Positions 44,058-63,265 of a stretch of 64,000 nt of DNA are shown piece by piece (the first letter of the stretch is position 1; every line of letters begins with the position of its first letter). The stretch covers positions 3,367-67,366 of the IMG/VR virus record IMGVR_UViG_3300033571_010557; one strand, 5' to 3'. This DNA comes from a virus. The notes beneath the pieces are model-generated. The model did no database searches, was not told where the DNA came from, and saw only the letters and a list, made by a program, of their open reading frames with translations. Made by a program: the position numbers and the translations under genes.

Positions 44058-44145
44058 GGATAGGTGGCAGAGCGGTTTATCGCGTCAGTCTTGAAAACTG
44101 AAACACCGTAAGGTGTCGAGGGTTCGAATCCCTCCCTATCCTCCA
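44058..44145 (+). tRNA. tRNA-Ser(TGA)
   Basis: Acceptor GGATAGG/CCTATCC, anticodon TCAGT-CTTGAAA-ACTGA, long variable arm ACACC-GTAA-GGTGT, TTCGAAT loop, CCA. Confidence 0.95.
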
Positions 44146-56710: not shown

Positions 56711-57116
56711 GGGGAACTATAAAGCGCACACACAGAAGGGGCGGGAGCGCGGCCCCGATAACACCCAAGACTAAAAATATGGAAACACCTATCGAAAACA
56801 ATGCGGCCCCTTCTGTTGATGTGCCGCGCCTTGTTCGTCCGAGTTGGGTGGACACTTGCACGTGCATCCGTGTGGCCGTGGAAGTCTCTCCATGCCGCCA
56901 AAACGAATCGCCTGACAGCTATCGGAACCGATGGAAGCAGACCGTGCAATCCGCCTACGAGCGTGGCGCGGACTGGAACTATGATGCCGACTGCCCGCTC
57001 TGCTACTGCGGCGACATCTCTGGGACGAACGACCCACATCAGGCGACGGCGAGCGATGGACGCCCGCAGACATGACAGATGAGCTACGAGCCGTTGCCTG
57101 CATGTGATGGTTCTCT
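56711..57116 (-). mobile_element. Two attC-like sites (56711-56839, 57024-57116) flanking one 313-bp cassette
   Basis: AAC...GTT imperfect hairpins with bulged bases; cassette ends GTTCGTCC/GGACGAAC are complementary. Confidence 0.8.
56779..57075 (+). CDS. Cassette-borne Cys-rich hypothetical protein
   Basis: Starts in the loop of one site and stops in the loop of the next. Confidence 0.65.
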   Translation: METPIENNAAPSVDVPRLVRPSWVDTCTCIRVAVEVSPCRQNESPDSYRNRWKQTVQSAYERGADWNYDADCPLCYCGDISGTNDPHQATASDGRPQT

Positions 57117-57387
57117 GACGTTGGTCTAAAGCCCCCGAAAATAAAGTTACGAAAAGTTACATTTAGCGTTTGACTCTCTGTAACCTTGGGTTACTATCTC
57201 TCACCATGAGCAAAACATCAATCGCCCCCCACATCGCAATCGAAAAGATCAAAATCAACGGTCTTACATTTAATGTCATGCAATCCTTCACTCCAGAGCA
57301 AGTCGCCGCTCGCGGTCGTGAAAACACCCCTCTTTTTAGCGAATAATCCTCCTAGGTAATTATCCCCATATAATCATTACGGGATAC

Positions 57388-59075: not shown

Positions 59076-59439
59076 TAGGGGGTGAATAAATGATTTCTTT
59101 GGCCTATGAGCCAATAATTTGACCACAAAGTTAATGATCGAACTCACACATCGCGAATACAGGCTGCTCACCCGAGCGGAATCGGAAGCCAAGGCTAACC
59201 TTGGTATGCACACGGGAGGGCCACACGAGGCTGAATACCGGGTGTTCCTTCAAGACCTCAGACGAGTCATCTTGAAGATCAAGCATGGCGGCAATGAGCG
59301 TCCTGAGAAGGCCCGTCGCCGAGAGAAGAAAGTAACCCAACTGTCAGGGTGGCAAGGGCCTATACCTGATACAGACTACGACGATTGAGAAGCATCGCTG
59401 ATACGACAGGCAGACGACGCACGAGCGCTTCATGAATTG

Positions 59440-59760
59440 ATGAAGACATACCAGGTATACATCGCCAGATGTTCAGATGGATCTTTATATACCGGATTTA
59501 GCGATGACCCGGTGAGAAGATGTCGGGTTCATAACTCGGGAAAGGGTGCCAAGTACACTAGATCAAGGCTTCCTGTTGAATTAGTATGGGTTAGTGAACC
59601 GTACTACGATGTTTCCACAGCCATGTCCTTTGAACGGAGTATAAAGAAAATGAGCAGAAAGAAGAAGCTGAAGATTGTGACACGCGAAACACATGCATGT
59701 CAGCGTCTCGACGATCAAATCCACGCCGAGCAATTGAGTCAGGCGAACCGTCAAAGATGA
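59440..59760 (+). CDS. GIY-YIG nuclease (YhbQ/UPF0213-like) fused to a cassette tail
   Basis: VYIARCSDGSLYTG.SDD..RR...HN.GKGAKYTRSR.PV. Confidence 0.88.
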   Translation: MKTYQVYIARCSDGSLYTGFSDDPVRRCRVHNSGKGAKYTRSRLPVELVWVSEPYYDVSTAMSFERSIKKMSRKKKLKIVTRETHACQRLDDQIHAEQLSQANRQR

Positions 59761-59769
59761 GGCGACCGC

Positions 59770-60036
59770 ATGAGCGCGACTGACCAACATAGCACCCACA
59801 ACGCAACCGCGAATGCGGTTGCCTCCAGCGGCATGGTATGTGCCGCCCGTCGGAAAAAGCCAGCTCGCCACATGAGCGCAAGAAATGCGGATGGCTGGGC
59901 ATGGGTCAAGTGCGGTAGAAAAGCAGTGACCGTGAGTGAGTTTGGCAAACCGCTTTGTCGTCAGTGTTCACATACCGATAAAACTCTGGCGACGGGAGGG
60001 GCGGCGATGCGCTCCGACGAAGCCGGGAAACTCTGA
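59770..60036 (+). CDS. Cassette ORF, Cys-rich
   Basis: Starts and stops within attC-like loops; PLCRQC. Confidence 0.6.
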   Translation: MSATDQHSTHNATANAVASSGMVCAARRKKPARHMSARNADGWAWVKCGRKAVTVSEFGKPLCRQCSHTDKTLATGGAAMRSDEAGKL

Positions 60037-60049
60037 ACTCAAAAATAGC

Positions 60050-60361
60050 ATGGATAAAACAAAACAGACCCCTCCCGTTGCCAGCAGTGCCCTTGTTCGG
60101 CCTTTGCCGAAGTCGGGCGTGGCGGACTGCCCATCTTGCGGTTGCAAACAGACAGTGAAGCGCCACAACGCCGACTGGACATGCTACAAATGCTGGTTCC
60201 ACGAGACGGTCGATGAGGATAAAGAGATGGAACGCGAAATCACTGACATGCTCATGGAGTGCGTCGATTGGCTGGGGCGAAACCCGGCAATAAAACCCGA
60301 TCCTCGCGTGTGGCAACACCTAGCGGTGTATTGGCCGAACGTCAAAAATCAGGCACCATGA
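60050..60361 (+). CDS. Cassette ORF, Zn-ribbon protein
   Basis: MDKTKQ start in the loop; CPSCG...CYKC; ends PNVKNQAP. Confidence 0.65.
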   Translation: MDKTKQTPPVASSALVRPLPKSGVADCPSCGCKQTVKRHNADWTCYKCWFHETVDEDKEMEREITDMLMECVDWLGRNPAIKPDPRVWQHLAVYWPNVKNQAP

Positions 60362-60594
60362 GCACAGGACGACACCAACACGACAGGCAGCCTACGAATG
60401 GTTGCGTGCATTTTTCTTGTTCGCATGCGGCTTGGTGGGATGCTGGATGGTTGCGTTGTCACTACAAATGGATTGGTCCTCATATTTGGATCGAGCATGG
60501 CAAGTTTATGAAGATTGTGACACGCGAAACACATGCATGTCAGCGTCTCGACGATCAAATCCACGCCGAGCAATTGAGTCAGGCGAACGATTAA
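60358..60594 (+). CDS. Cassette ORF
   Basis: ATGA-coupled inside the site; ends QAND. Confidence 0.5.
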   Translation: MSTGRHQHDRQPTNGCVHFSCSHAAWWDAGWLRCHYKWIGPHIWIEHGKFMKIVTRETHACQRLDDQIHAEQLSQAND

Positions 60595-60748
60595 GCGCAG
60601 TGAACCGCGAGCACAAAGCTATGAAAACACCTCAGATGGCTACGAGCGGTTCACGGCCGCGCCTGGTTCGGGCGTGTCCGTGCTGCGGTGTCCGCAAATA
60701 CCCGCACCGAGCATGGTGCCCAAACCCGCCAATCATGCGCCTACCAAA

Positions 60749-60964
60749 ATGAATATCGGAGAGATCATCATTGCCGCCGTCATCCGCGCTGCGGCCATCG
60801 AGAACGCTGTCACGCACGAGGACGGCGGATGGATATTCGTGTGGTCGGCAAACGCAGCAGAGCAGATCGAAGCCGCGCTACACGAGGCTGGCTACACGCT
60901 CTGCCCGAACGTCAAAAATCAGGCACGCGAACCCAGTGCGCCTGATACTGCCAAAACCGAATAG
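60749..60964 (+). CDS. Cassette ORF (second in its cassette, after 60621-60752)
   Basis: MNIGEIII...PNVKNQARE... Confidence 0.6.
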   Translation: MNIGEIIIAAVIRAAAIENAVTHEDGGWIFVWSANAAEQIEAALHEAGYTLCPNVKNQAREPSAPDTAKTE

Positions 60965-61010
60965 AGCGTTGCCTGCATTTTCTTTGTTCTCCGACGATTT
61001 ACCCAAGACT

Positions 61011-61262
61011 ATGGACCCACTACAAGACAACTTCCAAGCACTTCCTGAATGGCTGAAACACGCCTACCACAACGACAGCGCAGTGAATCGCGTCGTCAAA
61101 GACTGGCGCATGACATCGAAGCCGCTCGCTTCTCTCTACGAAAGTCTGGCAATGCGGATGTATGAACTCAAGAACCACTGGCAGGCTACGGCGGAGCATC
61201 ACGCATCTCGTGCGCCCGCTGTTGTCGCGATGCCTTCGGAGAATGACCAAGGTATGCCATGA
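61011..61262 (+). CDS. Cassette ORF
   Basis: MDPLQDNF...SENDQGMP. Confidence 0.65.
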   Translation: MDPLQDNFQALPEWLKHAYHNDSAVNRVVKDWRMTSKPLASLYESLAMRMYELKNHWQATAEHHASRAPAVVAMPSENDQGMP

Positions 61263-61662
61263 ATGCCGCGCCCTCCAGTTCCGTAGCGCCAATGACTCCA
61301 ACGCGGCAGTCATTGGCGTCTCCGTCTGGTTCTGGCGGGGGTTTGCATTGGGCGCAGATCATGGCACGCGATCTTGGCATTGTGTCTGGCTGGCGACGTT
61401 CGCACACAACTCAATGCTCGTCAGTGCGCCAGGCCGAAATCCTGGAAATGTGATTGAGCGGATGCCTGAACTCATCGCCTCTGCGCGGGCGGCATACGGA
61501 CCAAATGCAATCACACGCTGGGACGGCCTGCAATTCCTCGGCGCGGTCTGTGTGCCTAACGCTGCTGCTGAGACACGGCGGGAATAAAACTTTGACCCTG
61601 CTAGAGACTGCATCCCGCCGTTGTCTCTAGCAGCTTTGTTCGGCGGGTTTGGAATCACGACT

Positions 61663-61902
61663 ATGCTAACTGAAATCATACCTGAAATCATCGAAGAACC
61701 AATCAAAGCCGGATGCGCTCCGGGCAACGAAACCATCGGCTACCTCGCCGGTGAAATCTCACGACTACGGGCTGAACTGCGGAACATCGCCACTGCGAAG
61801 CCACGCGAATGGGGAGAGATGTCCGACCAGTTCCAGCCGTGGGCGCAGAATCGCGCAAGGGCCGCGCTGACTCCGCCGAACGTCAAAAATCAGGCACCAT
61901 GA
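61663..61902 (+). CDS. Cassette ORF
   Basis: MLTEII...ARAALTPPNVKNQAP. Confidence 0.65.
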   Translation: MLTEIIPEIIEEPIKAGCAPGNETIGYLAGEISRLRAELRNIATAKPREWGEMSDQFQPWAQNRARAALTPPNVKNQAP

Positions 61903-62017
61903 GTACAGGACGACACCAACACGAGCAGCAACCTTCGAATGGTTGCCTGCATTTATTTTAATTCAGCGATGAAGGCCGAAAATTAGAGTGGACTTCTTCT
62001 TTTCCTAGTTATAGGTT

Positions 62018-63265
62018 ATGGCAGAAGTCCACCCGTTCGATCTTACTAACATAAACAACACTCAGATAAATGATGCAGCGCTCGCTAAGCGTATCATGGT
62101 CGATGTTGGTACCGTTGGTGTTGGAGTGTCAGCGTCTCTTTACGCAACACCGGAGCAGATTCTCCAGATGGGTGCTGACATCGGCTCGACCAACAACGCA
62201 ATATTAAGGTCGAAGCCAAATGGCACGAAGAAGGCAGCTTATTCAGTGGTTACACTGGATGATGTCGGTAACATGGGGGGGATAAACGCTGCCAGATTCT
62301 CCACGAGTCCAACAAGCGTTCCTACCACAGTCGGAACCATGTCGTGGGATGATGGTAATGGATCTCTCTCACTCACGCTGAAGGGTGGCAACGTCAATCA
62401 GGTGATAGGCCAGGATGAAATCCACCTTTGCCATAACTCATCTGCCTCAGTCGCCTTATCGAAGGGGAACGTGGTTAAGATTGTGGGGGCGCAAGGTAAC
62501 AGAATTTCAGTGGCTAAGGCTCAGGCTAATAGTGAGGCCAACTCCGTTCACACTATTGGATTCGTTGCTGAGTCAATTTCCACTCTGTCAGAGGGATTCG
62601 TGATTAGCTCCGGGTTGATCAAAAATCTCGATACCAGATACGACAGTCACGGCTCGTCATTCTCAGCCGGGGATACGGTTTATCTGTCTCCAACTATCGC
62701 CGGTGGCTTCACAAAGACTAAACCTTCGGCACCCGATCAGACGGTAATAATTGGGTTTGTAGTCAGGGTTCATCAGTCTGTCGGGTCTATTTTCATTAAG
62801 GTCGATAATGGATACGAGATAGATGAACTTCATAATGTCAGTTCCACCGGTTCCGGTTCTGCCTTCCTGATCAGGAATGACTCTACCAATCTTTGGGAAG
62901 ACAAGACTCCTGCCTCAGCCAGAGATGTAATAAACGGAGCGGCAACTGCTAACTCGGTAACCACTGCTAACTACACGCCTGCTCTCACGGATGTACAGGA
63001 TTACATACTGATGAATTACACTGGCGGTCCTCAGAGTGTAACTATACCGACCAACGGCTCCGTTCCCTTCCCTGTTGGAACTACCCTGAACATCATTCAA
63101 AAGAGTGAGCAACAAGTAACCATAGAAACATCAGTAGGAGTTATCCTGAGAGTAAGAGGTTACGGAAACGCTATCGCCGGTCAGTGGGGTGTAGCAGTTC
63201 TCATAAAGATAGACACAAATGAGTGGGTGCTCACTGGAGATATAACATACATTCCTATCTCATGA
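62018..63265 (+). CDS. Virion fibre/decoration-type protein
   Basis: Gly/Ser/Thr-rich; A.A.SE...T.G, G..YLSPT.AG..T.TKPSAP, C-terminal T.P...FP.G..I.Q...W...GD; late-type motif upstream. Confidence 0.7.
   Translation: MAEVHPFDLTNINNTQINDAALAKRIMVDVGTVGVGVSASLYATPEQILQMGADIGSTNNAILRSKPNGTKKAAYSVVTLDDVGNMGGINAARFSTSPTSVPTTVGTMSWDDGNGSLSLTLKGGNVNQVIGQDEIHLCHNSSASVALSKGNVVKIVGAQGNRISVAKAQANSEANSVHTIGFVAESISTLSEGFVISSGLIKNLDTRYDSHGSSFSAGDTVYLSPTIAGGFTKTKPSAPDQTVIIGFVVRVHQSVGSIFIKVDNGYEIDELHNVSSTGSGSAFLIRNDSTNLWEDKTPASARDVINGAATANSVTTANYTPALTDVQDYILMNYTGGPQSVTIPTNGSVPFPVGTTLNIIQKSEQQVTIETSVGVILRVRGYGNAIAGQWGVAVLIKIDTNEWVLTGDITYIPIS

Follow-up and report, generated by a model that had tools for sequence, protein, structure and literature searches.

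A probable integrase-less integron-type cassette cluster, wired in reverse, in a large uncultured freshwater phage

Integrons are usually viewed as bacterial devices in which promoterless genes all face away from the integrase. Our analysis of a window of 64,000 nt (the whole stretch of DNA considered here, bases 3367-67366 of the 67,366-b viral contig IMGVR_UViG_3300033571_010557, assembled from a metagenome and estimated by CheckV to be about 33% complete) found at 59742-61967 a genuine integron-type cassette cluster, in which five of eight candidate recombination sites (attC) are firm; all positions are those of the window. We regard it as very likely that this is a cluster of attC sites lacking an integron integrase (CALIN) in a large tailed phage, with its genes wired in reverse and with sites of an attC family that is also that of chromosomal integrons of Verrucomicrobiota. 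The core reading of a first-pass annotation made from the sequence alone, an integron-type cassette array, is borne out by matches to a covariance model of bacterial attC sites (R2), by the chaining of site cores, and by breakpoints at the R box in other DNA. The reversed gene direction, combined with a crossover in the opening box of each site, is the main departure from a standard integron array and is absent from that annotation.

In the mechanism that we propose, each mobile unit would consist of an attC site followed by a small gene, with the crossover at ...AA|C in the opening box. The cassette genes would be read by the phage's own transcription, several of them starting in or just after their own attC and ending a few codons into the next one, and one attC sub-type would carry an overlapping stop and start (ATGA). 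Cassettes would enter and leave by single-strand attC recombination, performed in trans by an integron integrase (IntI) of the host or of a co-resident phage.

Results and Discussion

The firm sites belong to an attC family of bacterial integrons

In passages of Nivina et al. 2016 (PMC5027507), an attC site is an imperfect palindrome of 57-141 bp bounded by AAC...GTT, and the sites of the array (S1-S8, Table 1), which are 89-133 nt long, agree with this in size and boundaries. The first-pass annotation had counted eight attC-like palindromes recurring every 227-365 bp, each opening with AAC and closing with GTT. The repeats and their spacing hold, with left boxes ending at 59748, 59975, 60340, 60588, 60910, 61244, 61560 and 61881 and junction-to-junction lengths of 227, 365, 248, 322, 334, 316 and 321 nt, and so do most of the coordinates, apart from errors of a few bases (the closing GTATGTG of S1 lies at 59836-59842, and the GTT of S5 starts at 60986); firm attC status holds for S3, S4, S5, S7 and S8 only. 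AAC is present in six of the eight opening boxes (S2 has TAC and S6 AAT) and GTT in six of the seven closing boxes that exist (S1 has GTA), S8 being without a closing box.

The R2 model was built from 29 bacterial sites only, 24 of them from a Verrucomicrobiota metagenome-assembled genome (MAG), G002, the array beside its integron integrase gene included, and five from other genomes of the same phylum. Run on the whole window, it found S3, S4, S5, S7, S8 and a further site upstream of the array (site B), all on the + strand and with 36-78 bits, and its best match on the minus strand had 10 bits. The search of both strands by covariance model that the first-pass annotation had called for is significant, with our own bacterial model, for five of the eight sites on the + strand; these five and site B match attC sites from beside an integron integrase with E values of 2e-7 to 3e-18. 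A mixed model (R1), with S4 and S7 outside its training set, gave results that agree with those of R2. The R2 matches of S1 and S2 were limited to the inner stem, and S6 and the divergent site A, which opens the upstream mini-array, were unmatched by R2. S6 was ruled out as an attC: it is a plain hairpin at 61285-61320 within the open reading frame (ORF) c6 and fails both models.

In a 44-site alignment of the family, 92.6% of stem cells are paired against 85.1% in shuffles, 57 cells show double changes against 16.4 in shuffles (none of 500 shuffles was as high), and pairing is only 30-43% once the partners are slid; it has an invariant bulged C and also a bulged T. Compensatory changes also separate the L box of G002 from that of the phage (e.g., CGGAT/ATCCG versus AAAAAT/ATTTTT). 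No family match was found in a control set of 80 unrelated phage loci (925 kb). Judged by sequence, the sites are homologous to the attC sites of a Verrucomicrobiota chromosomal integron.

Folding as single-stranded DNA, likewise proposed in the first-pass annotation, gave the attC shape (paired AAC/GTT, a short unpaired spacer, and two single-base bulges on the 3' arm about 6 bp apart) for S3, S5 and S7, as well as for site B; the fold of S1 is not attC-like and S6 gives the plain hairpin. The architecture of the folded strand, with boxes, spacer, opposite-arm bulges and variable loop, is that of an attC site, departures in spacer and bulge apart. S7, the most stable hairpin, has two T bulges on the 3' arm, 6 bp apart, and model match and fold together confirm the example site of the annotation, 61554-61644 with two bulged bases. 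Fold stability was clearly above that of shuffled sequence only for S7 and site B, and thermodynamic stability is a poor criterion for these sites. S3, S5 and S8 form a near-identical trio with a common left arm, CCGAACGTCAAAAATCAGGCAC (three matches in the window against 0 expected), and S8 is the right end of the array, 50 nt ahead of a tail-fibre-like gene. Of the degenerate sites, S1 retains the inner stem GAGGC/GCCTC and a bulged C, without L-box pairing and with GTATGTG as closing box, and S2 has a stem CTGGCGACGGGAGGGG/CCCCTCCCGTTGCCAG between an opening box CACATAC and a closing box GTTCGGCC, again without L-box pairing.

Chance palindromes or generic terminator-like repeats would agree with the thermodynamically unremarkable character of several sites. 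This explanation is refuted by E values down to 8e-18 with a bacterial-only model, by the strong covariation, by a significant permutation test of core chaining (see below), and by the lack of matches in 925 kb of control phage DNA, and we consider its probability negligible.

Cassette borders coincide with the predicted crossover

According to the first-pass annotation, each closing core is complementary to the opening core of the site that follows. In the 6 nt past the triplet, successive pairs match at 4, 5, 5, 5, 6, 1 and 6 positions, a total of 32/42 (permutation mean 18.7, P=0.0008), and the match within sites is only 1-3/6; the single poor pair mentioned there is S6/S7, with 1/6. Pooling with two related phage arrays (L002 and L006) gives 76/96 against 41, which was not reached in any of 50,000 permutations. 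A strict chain test (exact cores of at least 7 nt) found no excess over Markov shuffles because several cores are imperfect, and the permutation test was used instead.

Four further lines of evidence place the border of the cassettes at the R-box junction, where the sequence context changes. First, 59669-59748 is an exact 80-nt copy (100% identity, + strand) of 60509-60588, the tail of c3, and terminates exactly at the predicted crossover, GGCGAA|C. Second, viral and metagenome loci include ten pairs (6 groups) of 100% identical attC bodies in different contigs, and in all ten the right flank is shared and the sequence changes to the left of AAC; copies of one body within G002 have both flanks different, as expected of a homogeneous array. 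Two pairs that are the same on the left and different on the right reflect a single event: a different attC (body identity 0.92) comes after the same upstream cassette. Third, homologues of two cassette products are conserved up to the junction and have unrelated tails after it: three homologues of c2 (44-95% identity over the alignment) up to ...YWPN, and six of c5 (70-95% identity over the alignment) up to ...PSEN (junction 61244), both endings being codons of the junction boxes.

Fourth, Logan contigs from four freshwater runs of two studies (X2, X3, X6 and X7) break or switch partner at 59976, 60341 (two continuations), 61243/61245, 57028 and 57120. The c5 cassette, which ends at 61244, runs at 61243/4 into a different family attC in X3 and X6, and in both of these 60331-60508 is joined straight to 59669-60016, i.e., c3 is followed by S1 and c1. 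Since X3 is without phage backbone, the cassettes in it lie in other genomes. The comparison of cassette order in related DNA suggested by the first-pass annotation thus finds the same cassettes elsewhere, with breakpoints at the R box and with c3 before c1. Some stretches are uncovered in the four runs (e.g., 59738-60004 in X2), and such gaps were not counted as absence. A joint in X3 between 60631 and 57087, with 12 letters between, probably results from a related attC aligning to both S4 and site B and was not interpreted.

The metagenomic source of the assembly and the base composition of the array, with a GC content (0.535-0.595) above that of its left (0.45-0.52) and right (0.42-0.515) flanks, could also suggest that a fragment of a bacterial integron was misjoined to a phage contig. 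We consider such a chimera highly improbable, because X2 and X7 carry the phage backbone and their contigs span S8 and the tail-fibre-like gene (with 0 differences in X7), because a second mini-array lies 2.6 kb upstream, between phage genes, and because at least 12 other viral contigs carry the family, two of them complete with terminal repeats. The block is GC-richer than its immediate flanks, as the first-pass annotation had stated; a gene at 57.4-58.6 kb is, however, as GC-rich as the array.

Genes lie downstream of their attC sites

In the passages of Nivina et al. 2016 (PMC5027507) that concern strand polarity, a bottom strand is marked by extrahelical bases opposite its AAC arm, and a top strand by extrahelical bases on that arm itself. 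In the phage sites, the + strand has its bulged bases on the 3' (GTT) arm. In G002, where the top strand is defined by intI and the cassette ORFs, profiles seeded with phage sites match the bacterial sites on the opposite strand. On these two grounds we read the coding (+) strand of the phage as the bottom strand of its attC sites, with the crossover at AA|C in the opening box, for which the end of the 80-nt duplicate, the pairs with identical bodies, the tails of the c2 and c5 homologues and the contig breaks also argue.

The canonical layout of a promoterless top-strand ORF followed by its attC is not what we observe: the ORFs are downstream of the attC, on the bottom-strand side. Of 16 intervals in viral and metagenome loci, 12 have their longest ORF along the bottom strand, 2 have it the other way and 2 are ambiguous; in the G002 array it runs against the bottom strand in 17 of the 20 intervals (1 with, 2 ambiguous). 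By the same crude length test, the window itself has one interval with the bottom strand and two ambiguous ones, and the direction of c2 and c5 is confirmed by their homologues. Both c2 and cA begin within the loop of their own attC, the 95%-identical homologue of c2 retaining the N-terminus encoded in the upstream attC, and several ORFs end 6-60 nt into the next site. ATGA overlaps are found at c2/c3, c4a/c4b, c5/c6 and c7/c8, the first of them in the loop of S3, which contains CACCATGA, the c2 stop overlapping the c3 start. The S3 sub-type is represented by 13 distinct sites; in 11 of them an ORF of 40 aa or more (or one cut off by the contig end) begins at the loop ATG, and in 11 such an ORF ends at the overlapping TGA.

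The cargo is made up of small proteins without assigned function, several of them Cys-rich. None of ten cassette proteins matched PHROGs, and of the ten ORFs submitted to Pfam only one, with a GIY-YIG nuclease domain, was above cut-off; the Zn-ribbon matches of c2 were weak and below it.

Several unrelated cassettes also have a conserved leader, (C/T)GATTTACC(C)A(A/C)GACT(A), after the closing GTT box and ahead of the cassette ATG (window 60995-61010 and 56764-56778, L001 27-45, and the right flanks in alignment A1). This element could serve in translation initiation or as a promoter and move along with the cassettes.

Table 1. Sites and reading frames of the two arrays and the adjoining nuclease-domain gene.
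Feature	Coordinates	Strand	Description
Site A	56711..56840	+	divergent hairpin opening the mini-array; R1 1.7 bits, R2 no match
cA	56779..57075	+	98 aa, Cys-rich; starts in site A loop, stops in site B loop
Site B	57022..57119	+	attC near the Verrucomicrobiota chromosomal type; R2 77.6 bits, E 3e-18; fold z -3.1
GIY-YIG nuclease-domain ORF	59437..59760	+	107 aa; Pfam PF01541, 59 bits; no NCBIfam match
S1	59742..59842	+	degenerate attC; R2 14.1 bits, E 0.15, inner core only; R1 5.9 bits
c1	59770..60036	+	88 aa, or 54 aa from ATG 59872; stop in S2 loop
S2	59969..60102	+	degenerate attC, long loop; inverted repeat I2; R2 8.2 bits, E 5.5; fold z -2.6
c2	60050..60361	+	103 aa, CxxC...CxxC, zinc-ribbon-like; starts in S2 loop, stops in S3
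S3	60333..60425	+	attC, bottom strand on +; R2 76.1 bits, E 8e-18; attC-shaped fold
c3	60358..60594	+	78 aa; start ATG inside S3 loop
S4	60582..60673	+	attC sub-type (AAGCGC... L box); R2 48.8 bits, E 1e-10; R1 43.2 bits
c4a	60621..60752	+	43 aa; overlaps c4b by ATGA
c4b	60749..60964	+	71 aa
S5	60903..60994	+	attC; R2 36.4 bits, E 2e-7; attC-shaped fold
c5	61011..61262	+	83 aa; leader GATTTACCCAAGACT ahead
'S6'	61237..61335	+	not attC; R1 1.1 bits, R2 no match
Segment without recognisable attC	61259..61587	+	c6 (64 aa, 61259-61453), c6b (41 aa, 61462-61587)
S7	61554..61646	+	attC; R2 53.2 bits, E 8e-12; R1 40.6 bits; fold z -5.9
c7	61663..61902	+	79 aa; stop TGA overlaps ATG in S8 loop
S8	61873..61967	+	attC, decayed closing arm (no GTT); R2 46.1 bits, E 6e-10

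Array ends, erosion, and present activity

At the left end of the array, the last approximately 27 codons of the GIY-YIG ORF are a copy of the 3' end of c3. Since X3 and X6 have c3 ahead of c1, we infer, as the simplest reading, that a copy of c3 once stood upstream of S1 and that the GIY-YIG gene took the place of most of it. The segment 61245-61559 is without recognisable attC, and its left border acts as a junction in X3. With S1 and S2 degenerate, S8 truncated, one segment without attC, and the GIY-YIG fusion, the array looks partly eroded. The first-pass annotation had suggested that the phage carries and may shuffle cassettes as accessory genes; the carriage holds, and ongoing shuffling in this particular phage is not apparent from its partly eroded array. 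A possible attC remnant upstream of the GIY-YIG gene (59380-59423; R1 8.2 bits, E 6.9) was not significant and was dropped. The same stretch resembles the S3 loop (17-nt repeat, 88%) and could be an attC remnant displaced by that gene, at a similarity that is not significant.

The second mini-array (site A, cA, site B) occupies 56711-57119. As folded, site A consists of GAAC, 9 nt, a stem with two bulges on the 3' arm, 9 nt, and GTTCGTCC, and its core matches that of site B at 5/6 positions. Site B is followed here directly by phage backbone with a promoter-like TTGACT-N17-TACTAT and has no cassette body; in X3 and X6, both of its flanks are different and a cassette leader comes after it.

Because the GIY-YIG gene adjoins the array and carries the duplicated tail of a cassette, one could propose that the units are moved by another enzyme, either a GIY-YIG homing endonuclease or a phage recombinase, and that the likeness to attC is secondary. 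We find this improbable: a tblastn search of 59 loci with the GIY-YIG protein matched only L026, and this only by the c3 tail that they have in common (residues 72-106), the sites share homology with attC sites beside integron integrases in a bacterium and in a phage, and the breakpoints match the cleavage point of the integrase.

Several observations weigh against an integrase-built array in this phage. Three of the eight sites (S1, S2 and S6) fail the family models, and the folds of S3, S4, S5 and S8 have z of about 0 relative to shuffled sequence. Rfam searches, with the whole window at the gathering threshold and with 59300-62200 at E up to 10, returned only two tRNAs and two chance-level matches. 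Instead of the textbook cores RYYYAAC/GTTRRRY, the sites have (G/C)CGAAC and GTTCG(G/C); it is the fourth position that is off the R/Y rule, the G002 sites beside intI show the same deviation, and cores of the GTTAGGC type occur in some related phage sites (L002). At 3-4 nt, the unpaired spacer is shorter than the 5-6 nt given as usual in passages of PMC5027507, and the first bulged base is a C where those passages give G as usual. The reference intI of G002 (L018 62-1294) has a fragmented match to TIGR02249, the middle part lying in a different frame with a TGA in it, so that this integrase may be broken, either as a pseudogene or through assembly errors. A search for PF00589 tyrosine recombinases gave 0 matches across the 67,366-b contig, about a third of the genome, which extends to the entire contig the absence that the first-pass annotation had noted for the window; since the contig is only about 33% complete, an integrase may sit elsewhere in the phage genome. 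The metagenome evidence consists of assembled contigs and not of reads. Finally, both arrays have non-canonical borders (S8 is truncated and site B lacks a cassette body), and the block may have been gained by ordinary recombination, not by an integrase.

This last point could be taken further, supposing that a piece of an array was acquired once, by homologous or illegitimate recombination, and is now static, with its hairpins kept for expression through embedded start and stop codons, translational coupling, or transcript ends. The non-canonical right ends of both arrays, the lack of L-box pairing in S1 and S2, the GIY-YIG fusion at the left end, and the conserved coding features in the attC loops agree with it, as does X2, a close relative with backbone that has the same c2-S3-c3-S4 order and the same junction between c5 and segment 6. 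Gene order in sister phages is comparable through run X2 only, because the search for close phage relatives failed: blastn of the array region against 50,697 phage records gave no match, the upstream gene as query gave none, and the tail-fibre-like protein gave only domain matches of 34-55% identity, in 80 loci, with no close phage relative among them. Yet the same cassettes recur in other genomes and break off there exactly at AA|C, the exact 80-nt duplicate that stops at the crossover points to a recent event, and five sites retain the full attC architecture. We consider a static block possible, although doubtful, and it bears only on present activity in this phage, the integron origin being undisputed.

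Distribution of the attC family and source of the integrase

An exact search of genomes with the left-arm 19-mer gave six matches, two of them real places, one being L008, a contig end of G002; the matches in L003, L004, L005 and L007 were chance on inspection. The same 19-mer matched 23 metagenome contigs (16 with a full site and 7 without), and a right-arm pattern matched 13 viral contigs, 12 of them with a full site. With model R1, matches were found in 6 of 151 sampled genomes of the phylum of G002, three of which have at least 10 sites, and in 2 of 151 genomes of the phylum of another bacterial genome, G001; one of these two is the phage-like contig L006. G002 itself has at least 33 copies of one attC type and an integron integrase gene (TIGR02249, 318.5 bits summed) adjoining a cassette array in which all ORFs are co-directional.

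Two further loci carry side observations. The contig L006, of 44.5 kb, is probably a phage or prophage; the Lysobacterales MAG with which it was binned has an integron of its own (L017) with a different attC type. At 640-2310, L006 has a six-site array with perfect core chaining, after a DNA cytosine methyltransferase gene. At the contig end of G002, a phage-type reversed cassette stands in line with canonical G002 cassettes (L008 7592-8000 / L059 2598-3002), with an S3-like attC and an ORF on the bottom-strand side whose longest frame has 114 aa (105 aa from the loop ATG). Such a placement hints that cassettes pass between the pools of phages and bacteria.

Concerning the enzyme, the first-pass annotation had invoked a host or distant phage IntI. 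A distant phage with the same attC family does encode one, and this contig has none. PF00589 matches occur in three of ten other viral records, and in two of the three, G310 and its fragment G311, the enzyme is a full-length integron integrase. G310 is a 39,247-b phage with DnaB, a primosomal protein and a major head protein; its IntI matches TIGR02249 with 352 bits (cut-off 265) and is 48% identical to that of G001. Upstream of its intI (locus L149 8321-10752) come family sites, in a divergent arrangement that is regular with respect to attC polarity, and a DNA methyltransferase cassette that starts inside its own attC, reversed and co-directional with intI. A second array in G310 has five sites on the other strand at the left contig end (L149 80-1662). 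No tyrosine recombinase was found in three phages of 90-100% completeness that carry the family (G004, G305 and G307).

Taken as a whole, the data are compatible with a wider picture, whose chances we put at about even: freshwater phages, probably of Verrucomicrobiota, would share a phage-adapted pool of reverse-wired cassettes that couple themselves in any order, with IntI supplied by the hosts or by a minority of phages that encode one. The arms and loop of an attC would supply the last codons and stop of the previous gene and, in one sub-type, also the start of the next (ATGA), so that any order of cassettes would yield a translationally coupled operon under phage transcription. Such cassettes would sometimes land in bacterial arrays and be silent there.

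Comparison with known systems

By composition the cluster is a CALIN as defined in PMC9892861, with at least two attC sites (here five firm ones) with no integron integrase nearby (0 PF00589 matches in the contig). It resembles a complete integron in site type and cassette borders, and differs from it in that the contig has neither intI nor an identifiable attI. The phage shares its attC family with the sedentary chromosomal integron of G002 (L018 and other contigs). Site architecture also agrees (AAC, short spacer, L box, bulge, 5-bp stem, second bulge or G-T pair, variable loop), as does the side of the crossover relative to attC polarity (pair L055/L056). However, the bacterial cassettes are 450-1200 nt long, with the gene upstream of the attC on the top strand, whereas those of the phages are 170-500 nt long, with the gene downstream of the attC on the bottom strand. 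Reverse-oriented cassettes exist in chromosomal integrons, for example those of toxin-antitoxin systems, as a self-promoted minority antisense to the direction of the array. Here, reversal is the rule across the phage pool, and expression apparently relies on read-through and on overlapping stop and start codons.

CALINs borne by phages are already known: Qi et al. 2023 (PMC9892861), in the main-text passages considered here, report 17 among 10,705 phage genomes, temperate and virulent, and IntI1 recombined 5 of 6 of the phage attC sites with attI1. As here, those are arrays of attC-bounded cassettes without a nearby integrase. Unlike the cassettes here, theirs are described as 'oriented in the same direction' as in typical arrays, and antisense genes, starts within attC and borrowed stops are not described in those passages. 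The present case further differs in having five firm and two degenerate sites and a second array in the same phage, and in an attC family common to Verrucomicrobiota integrons and at least 12 uncultured viral contigs. Our literature search, at the level of main texts, found no report of reversed phage cassettes, and phage attC sites only in Qi et al. 2023; what appears to be new is that the genes are wired in reverse, that stop and start codons are embedded in the sites, and that these are linked to a Verrucomicrobiota attC family. As presented in parts of bioRxiv 10.1101/2022.09.11.507474, the attG route also puts cassettes in ordinary DNA away from the integron platform, but the outer borders here are not clean GTT junctions, with truncated attC sites on the right and a gene fusion on the left.

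This array and its relatives suggest that the recombination sites of bacterial integrons are run the other way round in phages, where they would serve to plug in very small accessory genes. If so, there would be a large untapped pool of phage genes, with host takeover and counter-defence factors as candidates, and an additional route of cassette traffic from phages to bacteria; the type of attC family would also be a practical clue to the host of uncultured phages. Pipelines for integron detection that expect genes upstream of the attC will mis-delimit phage cassettes.

Phage identity and other features of the window

The source of the contig is a large uncultured freshwater tailed phage. The contig encodes ribonucleotide reductase, a DnaB-like helicase, a prohead protease and a major head protein, the last at most 37% identical to those of cultured large myoviruses, with matches to many T4-type records as well. 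The description of a lytic T4-like phage in the first-pass annotation holds loosely for T4-like, on the grounds of this head protein, and is not sustained for lytic. The window also has two tRNA genes, at 678-749 (65.5 bits) and at 44058-44142 (55.8 bits), the latter an 85-nt match with a long variable arm.

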